From: Spirochaetota bacterium
GTDB lineage: Bacteria > Spirochaetota > UBA4802 > UBA5550
Direction of reading: 5' to 3'
NCBI GenBank assembly: GCA_050298055.1
Contig: JBNKTL010000025.1
Span: 11,538 to 75,537, forward strand
DNA: 64,000 bases
Part shown: piece after piece, positions 41,559 through 57,116 of the stretch
Layout of the letters: each line of letters starts with the position of its first letter
How positions within the stretch are numbered: position 1 is the stretch's first letter
Notes under the pieces: model-generated
The model's input: only the letters and a program-made list of their open reading frames with translations
The model's database searches: none
Told to the model about the DNA's origin: nothing
Position numbers and translations under genes: made by a program

Positions 41559-44540
41559 ATGATGAAAATATACCTGGTTTTTAAAGATGAAAAATCCTCA
41601 AAATTCTGGCAGATCGAAGTTAAGGGGAAAAAACACACGGTTACCTTTGGTAAAACCGGGACAAAAGGACAATCGAAGGATAAAGAATTTAACTCGAAAA
41701 AGGAAGCCGAAGAAGATGCGGAAAAACTGATCACACAAAAATTAAAAAAGGGGTATGAGAAAATATCCGCTCCCGGAAAGACCGGTGTTGTATCTGAAAA
41801 GAAAACGAAAAAAGCCACTGTAAAAAAAACGGCTGCAAAGATCAAAGCTGACGGAGGTAAAGGGGAGAAGAAAGCAGCCAAAAAGACGGTCAAAAAGACT
41901 GTGAAAAAGGTTGTTAAAAAAGCTGTGAAAAAAGCAGCTCTAAAGAGTGTGAAAAAGACGGTAAAAAAAACAGTGAAAAGGAAAACGGCATCCGGTGAAG
42001 ATAAAAAATCTCTTAAAATATATGATCATATCTTAAATGCCGGGGACCTGAAACAGGCCCTTGTTGAACATTTCTCTTTTCTCGCGGATAATAAGGGATT
42101 TGAACCGGTGCTTGAAGCAGTGATGGCCCGGGCCCATGAGGTAAATCTTGAGGGAGTAACTCTGCAGGTTGAATTCCCCGGGAGAAAGACCCTTGTCTGC
42201 TCGCCCCCGGCAGACCCCGGTGATTATGCGGCCTGGCCCAAATCATTTCAGAATATCGTAAAGCATCATGAGACACTTGCCTATCCCGAAACCGGCTGGA
42301 GCCTGAACCTGGGGGATGTGGGCAATTTTGAAGTTGAGTTTCTGGAGGACGCGGATTCGGAGCTTCTGGAATATGTCGATGACCCGTCGGATATCCTCTG
42401 CCCCATTACCGATTACTCCGACTGGTGGCTTTACCATCCCTCTGAGGTGAACCCTGCGGGGGAACCGGCTCTCTGTTTTTTCAGCCATGAAGGGGGGGAT
42501 ATTGAAGATCCCGTCAACTACAACGCGGGCTCTTACTTTCTCATGCGGATAGCCGGAGACCTGGGGTGTGAAACGGTGATACCGGAGATAAAAGGGAGCG
42601 TTCCGGATGCCGATGAGCTTCTCGCGTGGTATGGTGGACTGGAACCGGCATGGCAGGAGGTCATACGGAGAGAAACGGACTCGGAAGATCCCGGCGTGCA
42701 TATCCTCCACAGGCTTCTCAAAACCAGGGAGATCCATGTCGGAGATTCTGAAATCGATTCCCTCAAGCCCCTGGAAAAATTTACCCGGCTTGAGGAGCTT
42801 ACCGCTTTTAATAGTCCCGTAACTTCACTTGAGGGGACCTCCCATTTAAAAGGACTCAAAAAGCTTAAGCTGGACAATACAAAGATTACGGATTTCACTC
42901 TTCTCGAAAATTTTCCCCGGCTGCAAAAGCTCTCCCTGGATAAATGCGCCTTGAGTTCCGTCACGGATCTGCCGCTGCTGCCCGTTCTCAGGGAGCTGGA
43001 AATAAATAATACGGGTATACGGGACCTCGGCGGGGTGGAAAGGTTCAAAAAGCTGGAGGCGTTGGAGTTTGATAATACCGGGGTTTCAAGCATGGAACCC
43101 CTGAGATCTCTGAAGGGGATCAATCATGTAAGCTTCTCCCATACATCCGTCAGCGACCTCTCCCCTCTTTACGGGAAAAAGGAGATGCATGCCCTAGTGT
43201 GCCAGAACGCCCCTGTTCCGTTAGTAGAGCTTTTAAATTTTAATGCCTCAATTGTTGAGGGTGAGAATGATGAGTTGATTCCCTTCTTCGGGTTGGTCCT
43301 TTTTGCGGATGCCACGGAAGATGACAAAATCCTCAGAGAGGGAATTACCGGTCTGCCCCGGCTTAACGGGGAACAATGCGATATCCTGGGAAAGCTGGTA
43401 AACGAGAGGCTCGTATCCCGGTTGAAAAAAGAGGAATATGAGGAGGCGATAGATCTTTTAGAGGCCTTCCTGGATCTGCCGGCCATTGAGCTCTCTGAGA
43501 ATATCCGGGCTGAGCTCGGGGGAAACTCCATGATTCTTGTCATTAACTTCACGGGGAAAGACCTCGCCGAAAAGGTTTTTTCGCGGCTGGTCCCGGAAGA
43601 GGTAAAAGAAAAGCGCCTTGCCTATAACCTGGCATGCTGGTACGCGGGGGAAAAGGAGAAGGAGCAAATGCTCAGGTTTACAAAGACCGCGCTGGAACTG
43701 GGGTTCGAAACAGAGCGGTTCGGTGAGAAGGATTTTGACAATTTCAGGGAGGACCCTGATTTTATTGAACTCATATCAAAACCGCAAGTCCCCGATCCCA
43801 GGGTAGATCCGGAGAAATGGTTCAGCCTGTTGAACGAGGAAACCCGGGAGTGCCTTATCTGGAAAGCCGGGAACGGTAATGAACCGGATTTTAAAAAGAT
43901 CCTGGATCTTGAAGAGCTTCACGGCCTTCGGGATGTCACGTCCCTGGAGCCCTTTCGGTACCTGACAAAGCTTAAAAAACTGAGTGTCGAATACAGTTCT
44001 TATTCCAGTATCGAACCGCTGAAGGACCTGGTGAACCTTGAAGAACTGAAACTGACGGGGGAACATTATACGGACAATAAAAAAATCGTCAATATAGAAC
44101 CCCTTGCGAACCTGACGAAGCTGCGGGAGCTGGTTGTTACCAATCAGAAAGTCGATGATATCGGCCCGTTGAAAAATCTGAAAAATCTCAGGACCCTGGA
44201 TCTCACTGCCAACAATATAACTGACATTACCCCCCTGGGGGGACTTGTGAAGCTGGAGGATTTGAGTCTCCGCGGAAACAGGATCGGGGATCTTCATCTT
44301 ATCGCAGACCTGAAGGAGTTAACCCGGCTGGATGTTATTCTCCCCGGGAATTCCGATTTTGAATTTATCCGGGGGTTGAAAAAACTGACAAATCTCTGGG
44401 CGGGAGACGCTGTCACCTCACTGGAGCCCTTTGAGGACCTTCCGGATTTGACCTATCTCTGTCTTTCAGGGAGGAAAATTGATCCCGGGGAGGCTGAGGA
44501 CTTTCAGAAGCGGCATCCCCATTGTGATTTGGAGATATAG
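41559..44540 (+). CDS. WGR domain / Lys-rich linker / SMI1-KNR4-like / leucine-rich repeat multidomain protein
   Basis: SSKFWQI....TFGKTGTKGQ...K.KKGY (WGR); KKTVKK repeats; WP.SF..IV.HH...FSHE; internalin-type LRRs; AYNLACWYA TPR-like helix pair. Confidence 0.85.
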   Translation: MMKIYLVFKDEKSSKFWQIEVKGKKHTVTFGKTGTKGQSKDKEFNSKKEAEEDAEKLITQKLKKGYEKISAPGKTGVVSEKKTKKATVKKTAAKIKADGGKGEKKAAKKTVKKTVKKVVKKAVKKAALKSVKKTVKKTVKRKTASGEDKKSLKIYDHILNAGDLKQALVEHFSFLADNKGFEPVLEAVMARAHEVNLEGVTLQVEFPGRKTLVCSPPADPGDYAAWPKSFQNIVKHHETLAYPETGWSLNLGDVGNFEVEFLEDADSELLEYVDDPSDILCPITDYSDWWLYHPSEVNPAGEPALCFFSHEGGDIEDPVNYNAGSYFLMRIAGDLGCETVIPEIKGSVPDADELLAWYGGLEPAWQEVIRRETDSEDPGVHILHRLLKTREIHVGDSEIDSLKPLEKFTRLEELTAFNSPVTSLEGTSHLKGLKKLKLDNTKITDFTLLENFPRLQKLSLDKCALSSVTDLPLLPVLRELEINNTGIRDLGGVERFKKLEALEFDNTGVSSMEPLRSLKGINHVSFSHTSVSDLSPLYGKKEMHALVCQNAPVPLVELLNFNASIVEGENDELIPFFGLVLFADATEDDKILREGITGLPRLNGEQCDILGKLVNERLVSRLKKEEYEEAIDLLEAFLDLPAIELSENIRAELGGNSMILVINFTGKDLAEKVFSRLVPEEVKEKRLAYNLACWYAGEKEKEQMLRFTKTALELGFETERFGEKDFDNFREDPDFIELISKPQVPDPRVDPEKWFSLLNEETRECLIWKAGNGNEPDFKKILDLEELHGLRDVTSLEPFRYLTKLKKLSVEYSSYSSIEPLKDLVNLEELKLTGEHYTDNKKIVNIEPLANLTKLRELVVTNQKVDDIGPLKNLKNLRTLDLTANNITDITPLGGLVKLEDLSLRGNRIGDLHLIADLKELTRLDVILPGNSDFEFIRGLKKLTNLWAGDAVTSLEPFEDLPDLTYLCLSGRKIDPGEAEDFQKRHPHCDLEI
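41880..41980 (+). repeat. Coding tandem repeat with 12-nt period (KKxV units)
   Basis: AAAAAGACGGTC AAAAAGACTGTG AAAAAGGTTGTT AAAAAAGCTGTG and further units. Confidence 0.75.
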
Positions 44541-44896: not shown

Positions 44897-45754
44897 TTAC
44901 TCCTGACCGGTTTTTTGTAATTCCTGTATCTGGTACTGTTTCGGGGTCAGGCCGAACCTGTTGGTGAACAGCTTGATAAAATGTGAGATGCTGTCGTACC
45001 CGAGATCAAAGGAGGTCTCTGTTACCGAATGATGTTTCAGTATTTCTTTTGCTTTGTTGAGTTTGATACAGGTAAAATAAGCATTAGGAGACATCCCGGT
45101 TATTTTCTTAAATTTCATTGAAAAGAGGGCGGGAGACATATAAAGGGAGGAAGCGATCTCCCTGATGTTGAGGTTTTCCCGGTAATTGTTCTTCATGATC
45201 CGAATCGCTTTTGAGACCGGGTTTCCGGGGTTTTGATGAAGAAAGCCTTTCGCCCCGGCGGAACTCAGGATCTTAAAAACCATCTCCTGGCCGTATAGGT
45301 CGACCAGGAACTCCTTTCCGGAGTTGTTTGAAAGGGCGGTCCAGGAAATTTTGTCCAGGTCTGTCCTGATGAGCTCCGTGTTTTCCCTGAAAACAAATTC
45401 AACTTTTTTATCTATGGGGATATTGTTAATTTCAAGATCATCACAGACCTTGTTGCTGATGGTCTCGATCAGCTTATCGCTCACTTCAAAAACAAGGCAG
45501 TTAGTGGGAACGGACATTTCCATTGAAACCCGGGATTCCGGGGGGAGGATAATAAACTGGTCTTTGTCATAGGTAAAACCTTCCCTCCGGTCAATTTCCA
45601 CGGTTTTTTCGCCGCGGAGTACCGTACAGATCCTGTAATACTCGTATGAATAATACCAGTCCTTGTAGTAGTGAGGAAAGTCATAGTAGAGAACTCTCAT
45701 GTGCTCGGTCTCAAGACCTTCCGCAAATTCAATTTTTCTATCGAAGCAGTCCAT
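44897..45754 (-). CDS. AraC family transcriptional regulator (AraC_N type), divergent from aor
   Basis: C.VLRGEK.V cupin-like N-terminus; IASSLYMS..F..KFKKITGMSP...LGYDSISHF...F...FGLTP. Confidence 0.92.
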   Translation of the reverse strand: MDCFDRKIEFAEGLETEHMRVLYYDFPHYYKDWYYSYEYYRICTVLRGEKTVEIDRREGFTYDKDQFIILPPESRVSMEMSVPTNCLVFEVSDKLIETISNKVCDDLEINNIPIDKKVEFVFRENTELIRTDLDKISWTALSNNSGKEFLVDLYGQEMVFKILSSAGAKGFLHQNPGNPVSKAIRIMKNNYRENLNIREIASSLYMSPALFSMKFKKITGMSPNAYFTCIKLNKAKEILKHHSVTETSFDLGYDSISHFIKLFTNRFGLTPKQYQIQELQKTGQE

Positions 45755-46014
45755 GTGGATAATCAGGATTTGCGGTCACCATGACCGGTGACAAAAAAAT
45801 CAATTATTTAATATTGTGTTACTTTTTTTAATTATGAATTAGATTAACTTTTCTTCTTTTTTTATTATTGGAGAGAGTAACTGGATTTAATCAATGAAAA
45901 AAATTAATTTTATCAATAATTCTTTTAAAAAAAATTACTCAAAGCCCGGCTATGTTAGTATTTGTAAAAATTTGTAATTTTTCAGACATATAATTTTATT
46001 TTAAGGAGGATACT

Positions 46015-47757
46015 ATGGATAAAATATTGAGAGTTAATATGGGAGCGAAAGACGGCCCGGAGATAAAGACGGAAAATCCCGGTCCCTATGCCGGACTGGG
46101 AGGACGGGCCATGACCACATCCGTCATTTCGGCCGAAGTTCCTCCGCTCTGCCATCCCCTTGGTGCGGAAAACAAGCTGGTTATTGCGCCGGGACTTTTG
46201 AGCGGGACTTCCGCGTCAATGTCCGGACGCCTTTCGGTGGGATGCAAAAGCCCCCTTACGGGAGGCATCAAGGAAGCGAACTCCGGGGGACAGGGGGCGC
46301 ATACTCTTGCCCGTCTCGGTTACGCGGCCATTGTTCTTGAAGGTGTTCCCCGGGGGGATGATCTCTATAAAATGTTCATCAATAAAGACGGGGTAAAAAT
46401 CGAAAAGGACAACAGCCTGAAACTGCTGACAAACTATGACCTTGTGGACAAAATGAAAAAAGAATACGGGGATAAAATAACCTGCATCTCAATAGGCCCC
46501 GCCGGAGAGATGAAGCTGGGGGCCGCATCTATTGCCGTCACGGACCTGGAACTTCGTCCCACGCGCCATGCCGGCCGCGGAGGCGTTGGAGCGGTCATGG
46601 GGGCAAAAAGGCTCAAAGTTATCGTCATGGACGACAGCGGGGCAAAGAACAGGGAACCGAAGGACCTGGAGAAATTCAGGGAGGCGAATAAAAAATGGGT
46701 GGAAGGCCTTAACAATCACGCGGTCACCGGCCAGGCATTGCCCGCTTACGGTACAAATGTCCTTACGAACATCATAAACGAAGCCGGGGGATATCCCACC
46801 TGCAATTTCAGTGAAGGACAGTTCGAGGGGGCCGCGAAAATAAGCGGTGAAACATTTGCCGAAATGGAAGAGAGCCGCGGAGGAAAAGGAAGCGCCACGC
46901 ACCCGTGCCACCGGGGTTGTGTGATCAAATGTTCAGGGACATATTATGACAATAAAGGGAACTTCGTTTCCAAGCAGCCTGAGTATGAAACCGTCTGGGC
47001 CCACGGCGGGAACTGCGGGATAGATGATCCCGATGCCATCGCGCAGCTGGATTTCCTTGACGATACATACGGTATTGATACCATTGAAATGGGAGCGACC
47101 ATAGGCGTGGCAATGCAGGCCGGTATCGCCGAATTTGGTGACGCGGAAGCTGCCATCGACCTTGTCAGGGAGGTCGGCAAGGGGACTCCCCTGGGCAAAA
47201 TACTGGGAAGCGGGGCGGCGGTGACCGGAAAAGTTTTCGGTGTGGAGAAAGTCCCGGTTGTGAAAGGCCAGGCGCTTCCGGCATATGATCCGCGTTCAAT
47301 TCAGGGTATCGGGGTAACTTACGCAACCAGTACCATGGGGGCGGACCATACGGCGGGATACGCTATCGCAACCAACATATTAAAGAGCGGAGGTTTTGTT
47401 GATCCTTTAAAAACAGAAGGGCAGACCGATCTTTCGCGCAACCTGCAGATAGCAACTGCGGCTATTGATTCCACAGGGATGTGTCTTTTTATCGCTTTTG
47501 CTATTCTTGATCAGCCCGAGACTTTCCAGGCTCTGCTGGATTTACTGAACTCCTGTTACGGGTTATCGCTTACAGGGGATGATGTAACTGAGCTTGGGAA
47601 AAAGGTCCTTAAAATGGAAAGGGACTTTAACAAAGAAGCCGGATTTACCAGGGAACATGACAGGCTTCCGCGGTTCTTTTCCCGGGAGCCCCTGAAGCCT
47701 CATAATTTAACTTTTATGGTTGAAGATTCGGAGCTTGATTCTGTATACAACTGGTAA
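46015..47757 (+). CDS. aor: Tungsten-type aldehyde:ferredoxin oxidoreductase
   Basis: ILRVN, KSPLTGGIKEANSGG, GRGGVGAVMG.K.LK, CHRGCVIKC, PEYET, D.YGIDTI, PAYDPR, GADH, DSTGMC. Confidence 0.95.
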   Translation: MDKILRVNMGAKDGPEIKTENPGPYAGLGGRAMTTSVISAEVPPLCHPLGAENKLVIAPGLLSGTSASMSGRLSVGCKSPLTGGIKEANSGGQGAHTLARLGYAAIVLEGVPRGDDLYKMFINKDGVKIEKDNSLKLLTNYDLVDKMKKEYGDKITCISIGPAGEMKLGAASIAVTDLELRPTRHAGRGGVGAVMGAKRLKVIVMDDSGAKNREPKDLEKFREANKKWVEGLNNHAVTGQALPAYGTNVLTNIINEAGGYPTCNFSEGQFEGAAKISGETFAEMEESRGGKGSATHPCHRGCVIKCSGTYYDNKGNFVSKQPEYETVWAHGGNCGIDDPDAIAQLDFLDDTYGIDTIEMGATIGVAMQAGIAEFGDAEAAIDLVREVGKGTPLGKILGSGAAVTGKVFGVEKVPVVKGQALPAYDPRSIQGIGVTYATSTMGADHTAGYAIATNILKSGGFVDPLKTEGQTDLSRNLQIATAAIDSTGMCLFIAFAILDQPETFQALLDLLNSCYGLSLTGDDVTELGKKVLKMERDFNKEAGFTREHDRLPRFFSREPLKPHNLTFMVEDSELDSVYNW

Positions 47758-49023: not shown

Positions 49024-50007
49024 TTACAGCAGTCTCTTCATCCTCTTGATCTGCCTTCCCTCGAAGATCCCCTCATCCAGAAAGTAATTCCTGATATCCC
49101 TGGGGATGAACTTGAAGAGATTTTCCGTGATGACGAATGTTCCCGGTTTTGCGAATTTCTGGCCCAAGTGAAATACGGAGTTAACGGAATCGGAGACCAC
49201 TTCTCCCGTATTCCCCCTTTCCTTGTACTCGATATTGCCGATGTGAAGGGCGGTCCTGAATGAAAGAGAATCGTCATAGCTGAACTCTTCCGCCATGATG
49301 ATCCTGATATCCATATAGAATTTGAATATTGAGAGCAGGGGATGACATTTCGTTCCGTCAAAGGGGAAAAGGAGAAGACCGCCAAAATCCATCCAGATCC
49401 AGACCCTTCCGTTGATCTGTGAGAACTTTCGCGCAACCAGGTCCCGGAATTCTGAAACAAATTTTCCGGTGTTAATATCACCATATTTCCCCTTGATCTC
49501 CCCCTGGTTATCAAGCTCGATAAACATGAGGCAGAAGCTGTATTCCCGCTCCGGTTTGATCTCTTTCCAGTCGGTCCCCGATGAGATGAAGTTCTCGAAT
49601 ACGGTTTCATCCTCCGGGGTCCCCGCCTCTTCGCCGTGGATTGTCTTTATATAATCAAGTACAGCTTTTATTCTCTTTAAAGAAATTTTACTCTTTAGCT
49701 GCTCTTTGCCTATATAGTCTGCGGCCCCGGAGTGAAAGATATCCGCCACATCTTTAACGATCCCCTTTGGGTCGATGATCCCGAAATAGACATTTTCAAG
49801 TTTTGAGAGAAGAGAGATGTTTTTTTTCAGTTCGGGATGCGTGAGTTTTCCCGCATCGAGGTAGACCAGGGATTCCTTATCGATCTCCCTGATCTTTTTT
49901 TTCATGCAGGCGGGAGGTTCAACGGTAACGCTGTTTCCCTTTGATTTCCCGATGGCGGAAAAGAGATCTTCAATTTTACTGTTATCGGTAAAGATGAAAA
50001 GCTGCAT
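49024..50007 (-). CDS. Receiver-like domain + class III nucleotidyl cyclase-fold domain lacking the metal-binding Asp pair
   Basis: LVYLD and GAADYIGK receiver features; FIELDN, WMDFGG, FRTALHIG, SDSVNSVFHL. Confidence 0.75.
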   Translation of the reverse strand: MQLFIFTDNSKIEDLFSAIGKSKGNSVTVEPPACMKKKIREIDKESLVYLDAGKLTHPELKKNISLLSKLENVYFGIIDPKGIVKDVADIFHSGAADYIGKEQLKSKISLKRIKAVLDYIKTIHGEEAGTPEDETVFENFISSGTDWKEIKPEREYSFCLMFIELDNQGEIKGKYGDINTGKFVSEFRDLVARKFSQINGRVWIWMDFGGLLLFPFDGTKCHPLLSIFKFYMDIRIIMAEEFSYDDSLSFRTALHIGNIEYKERGNTGEVVSDSVNSVFHLGQKFAKPGTFVITENLFKFIPRDIRNYFLDEGIFEGRQIKRMKRLL

Positions 50008-50931
50008 CTACTTCTCCCATTCAAGTTTGTACCTGTAGTATTTTTTCCGGGGGCCAATGTCAATGGGCGTCATGCTGTCAGCCAGAATGGGATCGAGGTT
50101 GATCCACGCGGTATCGCTGATTGTCACGGTGTTGGGCTCCGTGTACTTCGATTCTATTTCAATGATATTTTTAATGGTTTCACTGTCCTTTATAATTTCT
50201 TCACTTTCGGTATATTCACAGGCGCCGGTATGTACGGCGACCCTTAGTTCCACATGTTGTTTGAGTTTACATTCCAGGCAGTTGTAGAGAAAGACCCTGT
50301 TAATGATCTCCATGGCGGAAAGCATTGCCTTCTGGTTGCGGTTTGAAAAATGAAAGGCAACAAGTCCCCCGTCTCCCTCCCAGCTCCAGATTCTTCCATG
50401 CCTTTTAATCACAGTCTCTTTGACTATTTCATGGAGGTCGGAATATGTTGATTTTATTGTATTGTACGGATATTTTTTTACCAGCTTTGTGTTTCCCACA
50501 ATGTCCAGTCTCAGGAAAGTGAAGATATAGTCTTCACCCTCCAGTAAAACACCCCAGTTCCTGGTTATTCTGAGGCTGGGGTCTTCCACGAACATCCTGT
50601 TTTTTTTGTCATAGAGATATCCGTAATCCTGGATCTCCCTTATCAGGTTCCCGATATTGTTGACAGGGTATTTCCTCCCCGTAAGGCCGTTATAATGAAC
50701 ATCTACAAGGAGTGACACAAATTGTGTAAAGAGGTTGTTGGCCTTAATATCACTGACAATCTGCCGGGCCGCCTCTGTTTTCTGAATGGGGATGTTCTCG
50801 GGGATCCCGGTCCTTTTATGAAAATCATATCCCTGAATTAAATGGTTGATGATGACCTTCATAATCTGAATGCTGAACGACTCTATGAGAGTTTTCGTGA
50901 GGAGAGAATATGTGCTTGTTTTGATCTTCAT
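50008..50931 (-). CDS. Class III adenylate/guanylate cyclase-domain protein with an uncharacterised N-terminal domain
   Basis: LDIVGNT, WEGDG, LRVAVHTG, EPNTVTISD. Confidence 0.82.
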   Translation of the reverse strand: MKIKTSTYSLLTKTLIESFSIQIMKVIINHLIQGYDFHKRTGIPENIPIQKTEAARQIVSDIKANNLFTQFVSLLVDVHYNGLTGRKYPVNNIGNLIREIQDYGYLYDKKNRMFVEDPSLRITRNWGVLLEGEDYIFTFLRLDIVGNTKLVKKYPYNTIKSTYSDLHEIVKETVIKRHGRIWSWEGDGGLVAFHFSNRNQKAMLSAMEIINRVFLYNCLECKLKQHVELRVAVHTGACEYTESEEIIKDSETIKNIIEIESKYTEPNTVTISDTAWINLDPILADSMTPIDIGPRKKYYRYKLEWEK

Positions 50932-51108
50932 TGGCGTTTATCATGAAATATAAAGGCCAGTTTTGTCAAATAATTATTGTAATCGTGTCTATATGAAACA
51001 TTTACTCCCCTTTTCACATTAACTGTCAAGAAAGCCTCTTTTATGAACGATAAGTAATAAAAGGGACCTCAATAAAGAAGAATGCTCATGAATGACCAGG
51101 GGATAACT

Positions 51109-55491: not shown

Positions 55492-55785
55492 GTGAAAATT
55501 GATAAAGATGTTATAACCAGGGTCTCGAAACTTGCCCGGCTTGAACTCACCGAAGATGAGAAAACGGAGTTTTCCCGGCAGCTTACCGATATTATCAGCT
55601 ATGTTGAAAAGATCAACGAGCTCAATACCGAAAATGTTGAGCCCGCGGACCATATCGCGGACCTCACCAATGTTTTCAGGGAAGACAGTGTGGGGAAATC
55701 CATGGATACCGAAAGGATAGAGGAGATGACCCCTGAATTTGATAAGGGCTTTATTGTTGTACCGAAAATCATAGAAGGCAACTGA
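55492..55785 (+). CDS. gatC: Asp/Glu-tRNA amidotransferase subunit C
   Basis: LARL.L...E.......L..I..YV.KI.ELNT..VEP, NVFRED, VPKI. Confidence 0.95.
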   Translation: MKIDKDVITRVSKLARLELTEDEKTEFSRQLTDIISYVEKINELNTENVEPADHIADLTNVFREDSVGKSMDTERIEEMTPEFDKGFIVVPKIIEGN

Positions 55786-56354
55786 TGAGGAGGCTCTTTA
55801 TTGCGCTTCCCTTCGAGAGTGCGGTAAAAGAGTCTCTGCACCCGGTTTATGAGAACCTCGTCAGGTACAGGTCTCTTCTCAAGGTGGTCCCCACGGATAA
55901 CTATCACATCACGCTGAAATTTCTCGGGAACATTGATGAGAAGAGGGCGGATGAGATCATCGGGGATTTTCGTGGGTTTGAAGTTAACCTGCGGGAAATT
56001 CCCGTGGCAATAAAGGGACTGGGAGCCTTTCCCCGGGTAAAAAACGCCCGTGTCCTCTGGATGGGGATTGAAGGGGACAGTGATGCTCTTTCCGGGCTCA
56101 ATGAAAGGATCGGGGAGTTTTGCAGTGGGTCTGGCTTTGAAAAGGACGAAAGAAGCTTCAGTCCCCACCTGACAATAGCCAGGGTGAGAAAAGGGAAAAG
56201 TCCCGGTAGTCAATTAACCGGGTATATCGAAGAAAACAGGAATACCGAATTTAATACTACCATCTTTAACAGGATTGTACTTTATGAATCGCTCTTTAAA
56301 AAAGATGGTCCTCTTTACTCTGAGGTAATCTCCAGAGAGCTATGGGCAGGATAA
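55785..56354 (+). CDS. thpR: RNA 2',3'-cyclic phosphodiesterase (2H phosphoesterase)
   Basis: RLFIAL, HITLKFLG and PHLTIAR (two HxT motifs). Confidence 0.93.
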   Translation: MRRLFIALPFESAVKESLHPVYENLVRYRSLLKVVPTDNYHITLKFLGNIDEKRADEIIGDFRGFEVNLREIPVAIKGLGAFPRVKNARVLWMGIEGDSDALSGLNERIGEFCSGSGFEKDERSFSPHLTIARVRKGKSPGSQLTGYIEENRNTEFNTTIFNRIVLYESLFKKDGPLYSEVISRELWAG

Positions 56355-56360
56355 ATCTCT

Positions 56361-57116
56361 ATGGCAAAACTTATCAATACACCTGAACGTGTCTCAAAAG
56401 ACCATTATCTCTTGAAGATCGAACTCCCGGGGGCCGTTTCCACGCCGGGGCAGTTTATCAATATAAAAACAGACAGCGGGACCGACCCCCTTCTCCGAAG
56501 GCCGTTTTCCGTTTACGACCAAAATGGTGATATAATCAGTATCGTTGTCAGGGTCGTGGGAAGGGGTACGGAGATGATATGCAGCAGGGACAAGGGTGAG
56601 ATTGATGTTATGGGGCCCCGGGGGAGGGGATTTACTCTTACGAAAAATAAGAGAGTGCTCCTTGCCGGGGGAGGTGTGGGAAATGCGCCCCTTCTTTATC
56701 TCTCCAGGGCCCTCAGGGAGAGGGGGAACAGGATCACCTTCGTCTACGGGCACAGGTCGGAAGAGTATATCTATTGTGAGGAAGAGTTTAAAAAGTATGC
56801 CGATGATTTCAGGATCGTCACGGATGACGGTTCCCGGGGGATGAAGGGATTTACAACCGGTGCCGTTGAGGAGGCATTGGGGTCACCCGGTTACGATTTT
56901 ATCTATACCTGCGGCCCGGTCCCCATGATGGAGGGTGTTGCAGCAGCTGCGGAGGGAAGAATTCCCGTTGAGGTCTCACTGGAGAACTACTTCGGCTGCG
57001 GAATAGGTCTCTGTATGGGTTGCACCGTGGAAACCGGTGATGGCTTTAAAAGGGTATGCCTGGACGGGCCGGTCATGGAGAGCGGCTTCATTCATTGGGA
57101 AAGTTTGAAGGAGTGA
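56361..57116 (+). CDS. pyrK: Dihydroorotate dehydrogenase electron transfer subunit
   Basis: PGQF, LRRPFS, GGGVG.AP, CGP, CGIG.C.GC...VC.DGPV. Confidence 0.92.
   Translation: MAKLINTPERVSKDHYLLKIELPGAVSTPGQFINIKTDSGTDPLLRRPFSVYDQNGDIISIVVRVVGRGTEMICSRDKGEIDVMGPRGRGFTLTKNKRVLLAGGGVGNAPLLYLSRALRERGNRITFVYGHRSEEYIYCEEEFKKYADDFRIVTDDGSRGMKGFTTGAVEEALGSPGYDFIYTCGPVPMMEGVAAAAEGRIPVEVSLENYFGCGIGLCMGCTVETGDGFKRVCLDGPVMESGFIHWESLKE

Follow-up and report, generated by a model that had tools for sequence, protein, structure and literature searches.

Two adjacent spirochaete genes divide the residues of a class III cyclase site between their products, suggesting a bacterial heterodimeric cyclase

The window analyzed here is a stretch of 64,000 nt from a Spirochaetota bacterium (GCA_050298055.1, contig JBNKTL010000025.1, positions 11,538-75,537 of the forward strand). 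On its minus strand lie two abutting genes, named gene A and gene B, whose products carry class III nucleotidyl cyclase-like domains with complementary half-sites. A and B likely work only as a mixed pair, because each chain keeps only the half-site that the other lacks and single-gene relatives keep both. From this residue pattern, it is very likely that A and B form a heterodimer, and a heterodimer, if formed, would probably be an active synthase of a cyclic nucleoside monophosphate (cNMP). We favor, with somewhat more reserve, the combined reading that A and B together are a heterodimeric cyclase with one site, whose product is likely a purine cNMP that serves housekeeping signalling. The features of the pair are as follows.

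50008..50931, minus strand: gene A (P0001), 307 aa, a spirochaete-type N-terminal helical domain and a class III cyclase-fold domain.
50008..50931, minus strand: half-site of gene A, the metal/pyrophosphate side (D143, D187, R230, E260).
50557..50931, minus strand: residues 1-125 of A, the N-domain, with DUF8084-like N-terminal homology (hhalign 99.4%, E 6e-21).
50011..50556, minus strand: cyclase domain of A, residues 126-307, without the Asn/His helix residues and without the C-terminal E-G-R hairpin.
49024..50007, minus strand: gene B (P0002), 327 aa, an atypical receiver domain, a disordered linker and a class III cyclase-fold domain.
49024..50007, minus strand: half-site of gene B, the transition-state side (T267-G268, D273, N276, H280, E316-G-R318).
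49642..50007, minus strand: residues 1-122 of B, a receiver-like domain (weak response-regulator profile matches, AlphaFold 2 model).
49027..49581, minus strand: cyclase domain of B, residues 143-327, with E164 and F208, respectively, at the two metal-Asp columns.
50005..50018, minus strand: junction of the A stop and the B start, with a Shine-Dalgarno (SD)-like GGGAG within the last codons of A.
50940..50969, minus strand: sigma70-like -35/-10 match (10/12 consensus matches) that ends 9 nt upstream of the A ATG.

A first-pass annotation of this DNA had proposed a split, receiver-controlled heterodimeric cyclase. Both of its open reading frames (ORFs) were recovered, the TAG of A directly adjoins the ATG of B (gap 0), and every motif that it quoted was found in A and B. 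The W...Y.F motif is indeed common to the two chains, but 8 residues, not 6, separate its W from its Y. The cyclase parts proved paralogous, as had been suspected (BLASTP identity 21% over 155 aa, E 8e-13). In the pairwise alignment, the metal-binding D143 and D187 of A fall on E164 and F208 of B, and N276 and H280 of B fall on K254 and E258 of A.

To count residues across the family, 244 cyclase domains from the fetched loci were aligned, with classes set by gene context, not by residues. Seventeen of them were set aside beforehand: six A chains that were unpaired or lay at contig ends, each with the Asp side only (Asp-only), one fragment, one chimera, and nine odd single genes. Among these nine, three were complete, four were Asp-only (L112, L115, L137, and L140), L104 was without the first Asp, and L139 was truncated. 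Both metal Asp residues and the pyrophosphate Arg were present in 102/102 paired A chains (88 near and 14 distant), and 0/102 had Asn with His, Lys, or Arg. For B chains, both metal Asp residues were found in 0/103, Asn in 102/103, His in 100/103, and Asn plus His in 100/103. The stand-alone genes, which have the N-domain of A and no partner in the fetched flanks, carried both Asp, Arg, and Asn in 22/22 cases, together with a T/K-G arm and, in most, a C-terminal acid-x-basic hairpin. All catalytic residues were thus found in one chain in none of the 102 A, none of the 103 B, and all 22 stand-alone chains. The proposed complementarity therefore extends across the family, with B keeping exactly what A lost. 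The split also holds in the distant clade of 14 pairs (L119-L132).

The annotation had further stated that Arg is replaced by His in B. The His is present, but it is neither a peculiarity of B nor a sign of decay: in the stand-alone chains, the Arg column holds His in 18, Lys in 3, and Arg in 1 (n = 22), so that His is the family state. Six residues past the Asn column, a Glu was found in 100/102 A and 22/22 stand-alone chains, and most near B chains have Gly. Its staying with A fits A retaining the Arg side.

Protein searches gave 140 relatives for A, of which 120 (the query included) were listed and used, and 94 for B. The near A homologues kept D143 (120/120), D187 (120/120), and R230 (119/120), and the near B homologues kept N276 (94/94), H280 (93/94), E164 (92/94), and D166 (91/94). 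As read from these alignments of 120 A and 94 B homologues, the residue split is conserved far beyond chance.

The fold was assessed with models and profiles. Neither A nor B matched Pfam PF00211 or any NCBIfam entry. AlphaFold 2 models had pLDDT (predicted local distance difference test) values of 93.7 (A) and 88.4 (B), and their top Foldseek matches were class III cyclases (E 3e-10 for A and 2e-8 for B). In VIA comparisons, model A matched Cya2 with Z 21.4 (root-mean-square deviation 2.4 over 175 residues), the mammalian chains 1cs4_A and 1ab8_A with Z 20.1 and 15.9, and 3uvj_A with Z 19.5. In profile searches, A and B both matched 3mr7, as did the profile of the stand-alone relatives (E 2e-12). 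A and B are thus predicted to adopt the class III cyclase fold. The family to which they would belong as cyclases escapes Pfam, is unusual in its His and its base pocket, and occurs in spirochaetes that are mostly uncultured.

In the proposed mechanism, A and B would pair 1:1, and the one active site of this heterodimer would cyclise ATP or GTP to a 3',5'-cNMP. A would supply the Mg-binding D143 and D187 and the pyrophosphate-binding R230, next to the conserved E260. B would supply in trans the base pocket (F162, I204, and the T-G-x-I-V-S-D arm), and N276 and H280 at the positions of the transition-state Asn and Arg. The E-G-R hairpin would come from B as well. No catalysis is predicted for the mirror-image pocket. 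By homology only, R141 and K254 of A and E164 and D166 of B would sit in this mirror pocket, and in the near clade these opposite charges may hold the interface together or form a binding site for a regulator. Among the 120 near A homologues, R141 was found in 105, and the K254 column held Lys in 97 and Arg in 9; the four charges are missing from the distant pairs. An engineered precedent is Rv1625c, whose D300A and R376A variants, each inactive, complement each other (PMC4821796).

We then examined gene pairing, since its conservation across genomes had been proposed as a check. Relatives of A and B with a named organism were mostly from Spirochaetota; in four named cases, the locus tags of the two genes were consecutive. 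In 80 loci, kept out of 274 confirmed loci in named genomes, B directly followed A in 76; three stopped at a contig edge, and one (L076) was without B. The pairing is conserved, with near-universal A-then-B adjacency. A phylum sample of 401 genomes was also searched (A profile E <= 0.001, B profile E <= 1e-15). The A profile was matched by 124 genomes, many of them weakly and probably via ordinary cyclases, and the B profile by 97, some via A-type chains. Among the matches listed were 86 near-clade A genes in 77 genomes and 85 B genes, and 83 of each were adjacent in the order A-then-B. The exceptions among these listed matches were one additional copy of A, one A next to a contig edge, the L117 chimera, a B preceded by the C-terminal fragment of an A-type gene, and one partial B match.

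The genome of the window has a second A-B pair (G000:C56:19129-21029, L002), with 51% and 43% identity. Cross-pairing between the two pairs is conceivable.

This adjacency also bears on the idea that A and B each partner other cyclases of the genome, or that B is a decaying duplicate. The genome does hold ten other class III domains. Near-universal adjacency and B residues that are invariant over very distant sequences make this explanation hardly credible.

Several observations weigh against the heterodimer reading. L076 is an unpaired Asp-only chain, an extra copy whose genome has another complete pair, and L137:3626-4225 and L140:3127-3732 are truly unpaired Asp-only chains of 199 aa. Among 73 full-length N-domain proteins without gene context, 53 were Asp-only. 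The counts over 102 A, 103 B, and 22 stand-alone chains come from kin loci, partly of the same genomes and in overlapping sets, and describe a pattern, not independent trials. At the first base-selecting position, the canonical Lys (ATP) or Glu (GTP) is absent from B and from the complete relatives, and even the complete stand-alone relatives, with His for Arg, are only presumed active. From the literature, Asn is dispensable in the bacterial cyclases Rv1900c and Ma1120 (PMC4886424, PMC4215837), and the cyclase domain of one subunit of a fungal heterodimer is active alone (PMC10622942).

Some other unpaired genes were also observed. L115 stops at a contig edge, and L112 adjoins a receiver-like ORF cut by the edge. 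The L137 and L140 chains lie directly behind an rpoD-like gene in two related genomes, and the same two genomes carry Asp-deficient chains elsewhere (L104:3411-4178 and L139:1-651). L137 and L140 speak against strict adjacency, but L137/L140 and L104/L139 are possibly a second, unlinked split pair, and pairing in trans is possible.

Two alternatives draw on these points. In the first, A alone would be an active homodimer, with K254 replacing Asn/Arg, and B would be a catalytically dead regulator that titrates A. The Lys (97) or Arg (9) in the K254 column of the 120 near homologues, the known activity of Asn-less cyclases (PMC4886424, PMC4215837), and the few unpaired Asp-only chains (L076, L137, L140) fit this idea. 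However, only 1/14 distant A chains has Lys at the K254 column, and neither the conserved arm nor the E-G-R hairpin is left in A. If B were just an inhibitor, it would need neither N276 (102/103) nor H280 (100/103), which are kept in complete chains too. We consider an A homodimer highly improbable.

In the second, the A+B heterodimer would bind a nucleoside triphosphate and metal and make no ordinary 3',5'-cNMP, serving as a nucleotide sensor, as a scaffold, or in other chemistry. The family-wide lack of a canonical Lys/Glu base residue and the His for Arg point this way, as do PF00211 scores below or near the cut-off (0/2 window proteins and 13/22 stand-alone relatives at E <= 0.01). Cyclase-like domains with non-cyclase roles have been reported (AdvA preprint, 10.64898/2026.04.03.716176). 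Against it, the metal, pyrophosphate, and transition-state columns are each fixed in the chain that the class III mechanism demands, and they occur together in 22/22 single chains. A sensor or scaffold is thus unlikely, and an active heterodimeric cyclase is preferred.

The product was considered next. The first base-selecting column is supplied in trans by the Asn-bearing chain. As the annotation had noted, this column has neither Lys nor Glu (S183 in A and I204 in B). It is Met in 63 and Ile in 23 near B chains (n = 89), Phe or Tyr in distant B chains, and mostly Ser in stand-alone chains. The second column is Thr in 53/89 near B chains; Thr at this position occurs in some adenylyl cyclases (ACs) and guanylyl cyclases (GCs) (PMC4215837). 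We favor, at modest odds, a purine cNMP as the product, possibly with loose selectivity.

The annotation had raised the possibility of a non-canonical product, with the cUMP and cCMP of Pycsar cyclases as examples. PADLOC gave weak PycC matches on A (E 1e-8). E185 of A, fixed in 99/102 A and 0/22 stand-alone chains, falls in the alignment on D94, which is among the three residues with which BcPycC recognizes UTP (PMC11224242), and the Y50/F100 column is Phe or Tyr in 78/89 near B chains. On the other side, the R97 column is Gly in 117/120 A chains, and the EaPycC R142/Q144 columns are Met/Ile and variable in B. For the Y50/D94/R97, F100/R142/Q144, and PucC E118/K195 sets, only single columns matched in A/B. 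Ordinary AC/GC domains ranked as high or higher in fold searches (7r65 at rank 8), no effector gene is linked, and no relative of the stand-alone profile was found on viral contigs. A non-canonical product from the heterodimer is therefore very unlikely. A wider scenario is quite unlikely as well: a one-site heterodimer with Asn/His chemistry would make a non-canonical cyclic nucleotide outside phage defence, its dead pocket would be a forskolin-like allosteric site, and a homodimeric ancestor and a re-fused revertant would persist.

Neighbouring ORFs from 141 loci were clustered, and the clusters were named by eye. No recurring effector ORF was found beside the A/B pair in these loci, and one cNMP-binding-like ORF cluster was seen in 6/141. 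The largest real neighbour clusters were a sensor kinase type and housekeeping genes common to about 20 related genomes. The genome of the window gave 10 matches to ordinary class III cyclases and 33 to cNMP-binding domains, indicating that receptors exist without a dedicated neighbour. A plasmid search returned 19 partial matches below 60%, and the 10 listed were all ordinary Rhizobium cyclase-type genes. Without a recurring effector neighbour in 141 loci and with incomplete pyrimidine-selecting sets, the Pycsar-like role was not borne out; the context points to physiological signalling, not Pycsar-type defence.

In the window, the neighbours of the pair are a 3-methyladenine glycosylase gene and an unannotated ORF. 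The downstream methyladenine glycosylase gene is not in the 30 largest neighbour clusters, and the idea that it is linked to the pair was rejected. Farther away, thpR-like and pyrK-like genes (55785-57116) lie about 5 kb from the pair and occur near gene A in 20 related loci. A 993-aa ORF (41559-44540) has, by eye, a WGR-like domain, a low-complexity stretch rich in Lys, Ala, and Val, and leucine-rich repeats, and an AraC-family regulator is divergent from an aldehyde ferredoxin oxidoreductase gene (44897-47757).

The junction of the two genes suggests translational coupling of A and B. The GGGAG word lies 6 nt ahead of the B ATG, inside the coding sequence of A. The A-B spacing was about -4 to +3 nt in 67/76 pairs, and an SD-like word preceded 74/88 B starts, a count made with no shuffled control. 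The idea that the terminal Trp-Glu of A may be kept so as to encode the SD of B is weakly backed: the terminal Glu codon was GAG in 22/35 genes versus 812/1817 background Glu codons. No fused A-B polypeptide of 582-2000 aa was found among 7997 candidates, which is weak evidence. In L017:4976-6892, the frame of B is open for 638 codons across all of gene A, probably by chance. The idea of a conserved leaderless promoter ahead of A was rejected. The sigma70-like placement upstream of A occurred in 1/78 A genes, the window's A itself, and is a consensus match only.

The N-terminal domains were also compared. The N-terminus of B gave weak profile matches to response regulators (E 0.017-0.026) and, in the window B, no match to PF00072. 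D51 falls on the phospho-Asp column of NtrC1 and D79 on the Thr/Ser switch position, and the acidic pocket is degenerate. In near B chains (n = 89), the phospho-Asp was present in 88, Asp at the switch in 88, and the Lys in 51; the first position of the acidic pocket was Ser/Thr in 76 and never an acid, and the second was Asp in 43. In distant B chains (n = 14), the phospho site was Glu in 12 and Asp in 1. One distant B, L132:3567-4535, has a near-canonical receiver above the PF00072 cut-off and would be the best candidate for true phospho-control. The response-regulator alignment and L132 indicate that the N-terminal domain of B derives from a receiver. The annotation had proposed gating by this receiver. 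A receiver-like domain with a phospho-Asp is there, but the Asp switch, the lost acid, and the Lys in 51/89 weaken phospho-gating. As the B receiver is atypical, canonical phospho-gating is doubtful, and input via partner or ligand binding seems more likely than canonical phosphotransfer.

The N-domain of A had no Atlas match and no credible PDB or Pfam match, and a fold search with the whole A model was filled by matches of the cyclase domain. Its profile gathered 165 clusters, and the N-domain was also found in stand-alone cyclases. Besides cyclases, the clusters contained proteins of 360-374 aa that Atlas assigned to Spirochaetota DUF8084 (0.96). DUF8084-like proteins of 360-375 aa with the N-domain of A were P0317, P0321, P0325-P0327, P0335, P0340, P0354, P0357, and L149:1498-2625. 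These proteins had no Pfam, NCBIfam, or PDB sequence match. Their C-part is ATPase-like by an Atlas lead (0.89) and by motifs, which we take to be GHKL-type. Related C-parts were seen in proteins of about 500 aa, e.g., L150:589-2085. The N-domain of A is likely a reused spirochaete signalling module. The window's genome encodes one DUF8084-like protein, and such a protein is a possible signalling partner of the A/B pair.

A quick, unrooted maximum-likelihood tree of 114 domains was built. All 46 Asp-only chains were on one side of a 96% branch, all 42 B chains were on one side of an 88% branch, and complete chains lay in between. This topology fits, and does not prove, one duplication followed by division of labour. 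A single origin of the A/B pair is probable, from a stand-alone homodimeric cyclase that had the same N-domain and was duplicated; B probably gained its receiver domain later, and this domain has since turned atypical.

A natural fusion was found in one assembly. L117:3770-4744 is an in-frame A-front/B-back chimera with the full catalytic set in one chain. Compared with locus L041, its identity is 98% to A over the first 189 residues and 96.5% to B over the last 115. The two parts meet within the common W-x-W-x-x-x-G-G motif, with only few shared bases; this shortness makes repeat-driven misassembly less likely. P0284 is another N-domain/B-tail fusion, without the cyclase core. Every stage is thus seen within the family, from complete single chains through the split pairs of two distant clades to a re-fused chimera.

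The A/B pair was finally compared with known cyclases. Similar to the C1/C2 domains of mammalian membrane adenylyl cyclase, A and B share one fold and split the catalytic residues between two domains. By residue roles, we take A to be the counterpart of C1 and B that of C2. A difference is that A and B are two separate soluble proteins from an operon, without membrane anchors. They have His for the transition-state Arg and no base-selecting Lys. C1/C2 is under G-protein control, whereas A/B has receiver-like and spirochaete-specific N-terminal domains instead. Neither C1 nor C2 is active alone (PMC9552081).

The obligate heterodimers of chytrid NeoR/RGC(a) (PMC10622942) and the soluble guanylyl cyclase alpha/beta subunits resemble A/B, as proposed here, in being two products of a duplicated homodimeric ancestor that form a heterodimer, with homodimeric relatives persisting. 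Those proteins are eukaryotic, GTP-specific, and heme- or light-gated, whereas A/B has no base-selecting Glu. Soluble guanylyl cyclase works as a heterodimer. The best sequence and fold matches of A/B, with a short dimerisation arm, are Ma1120, Rv1900c, the Silicibacter 3mr7 cyclase, Cya2, and CyaB. These short-arm bacterial relatives presumably belong to subclass IIIc. Unlike the arrangement proposed for A/B, bacterial short-arm class III enzymes are described as two-site homodimers (PMC4821796, PMC9552081), with a heterodimer only in the engineered Rv1625c D300A + R376A pair. Pycsar and Pucsar cyclases (PycC 7r65, 8jsf, and 8jsz; PucC) share the class III fold, a non-canonical base pocket, and weak HMM similarity with A/B. 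They are homodimers beside a TIR effector with a cyclic-nucleotide-binding domain or a transmembrane effector (PMC11224242; 10.64898/2026.08.12.744502), and no such neighbour stands at A/B.

In two reviews, bacterial class III cyclases are described as homodimers, and the complementary-half split is placed in eukaryotes (PMC4821796, PMC9552081). A natural bacterial two-gene heterodimeric cyclase was not found in the literature covered, with most subscription papers and classic surveys outside this coverage; PMC2447327, seen in part, may discuss complementary bacterial pairs. The A/B pair can be likened to C1/C2, soluble guanylyl cyclase, NeoR/RGC, and the engineered Rv1625c pair, but it is a member of none of them. 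It is a real, conserved bacterial version of the split-site cyclase design. A widespread natural bacterial heterodimer, if true, would represent an independent origin of the C1/C2 design. With this family, one can test directly which advantage a one-site heterodimer has over a homodimer and how the freed second pocket is used.

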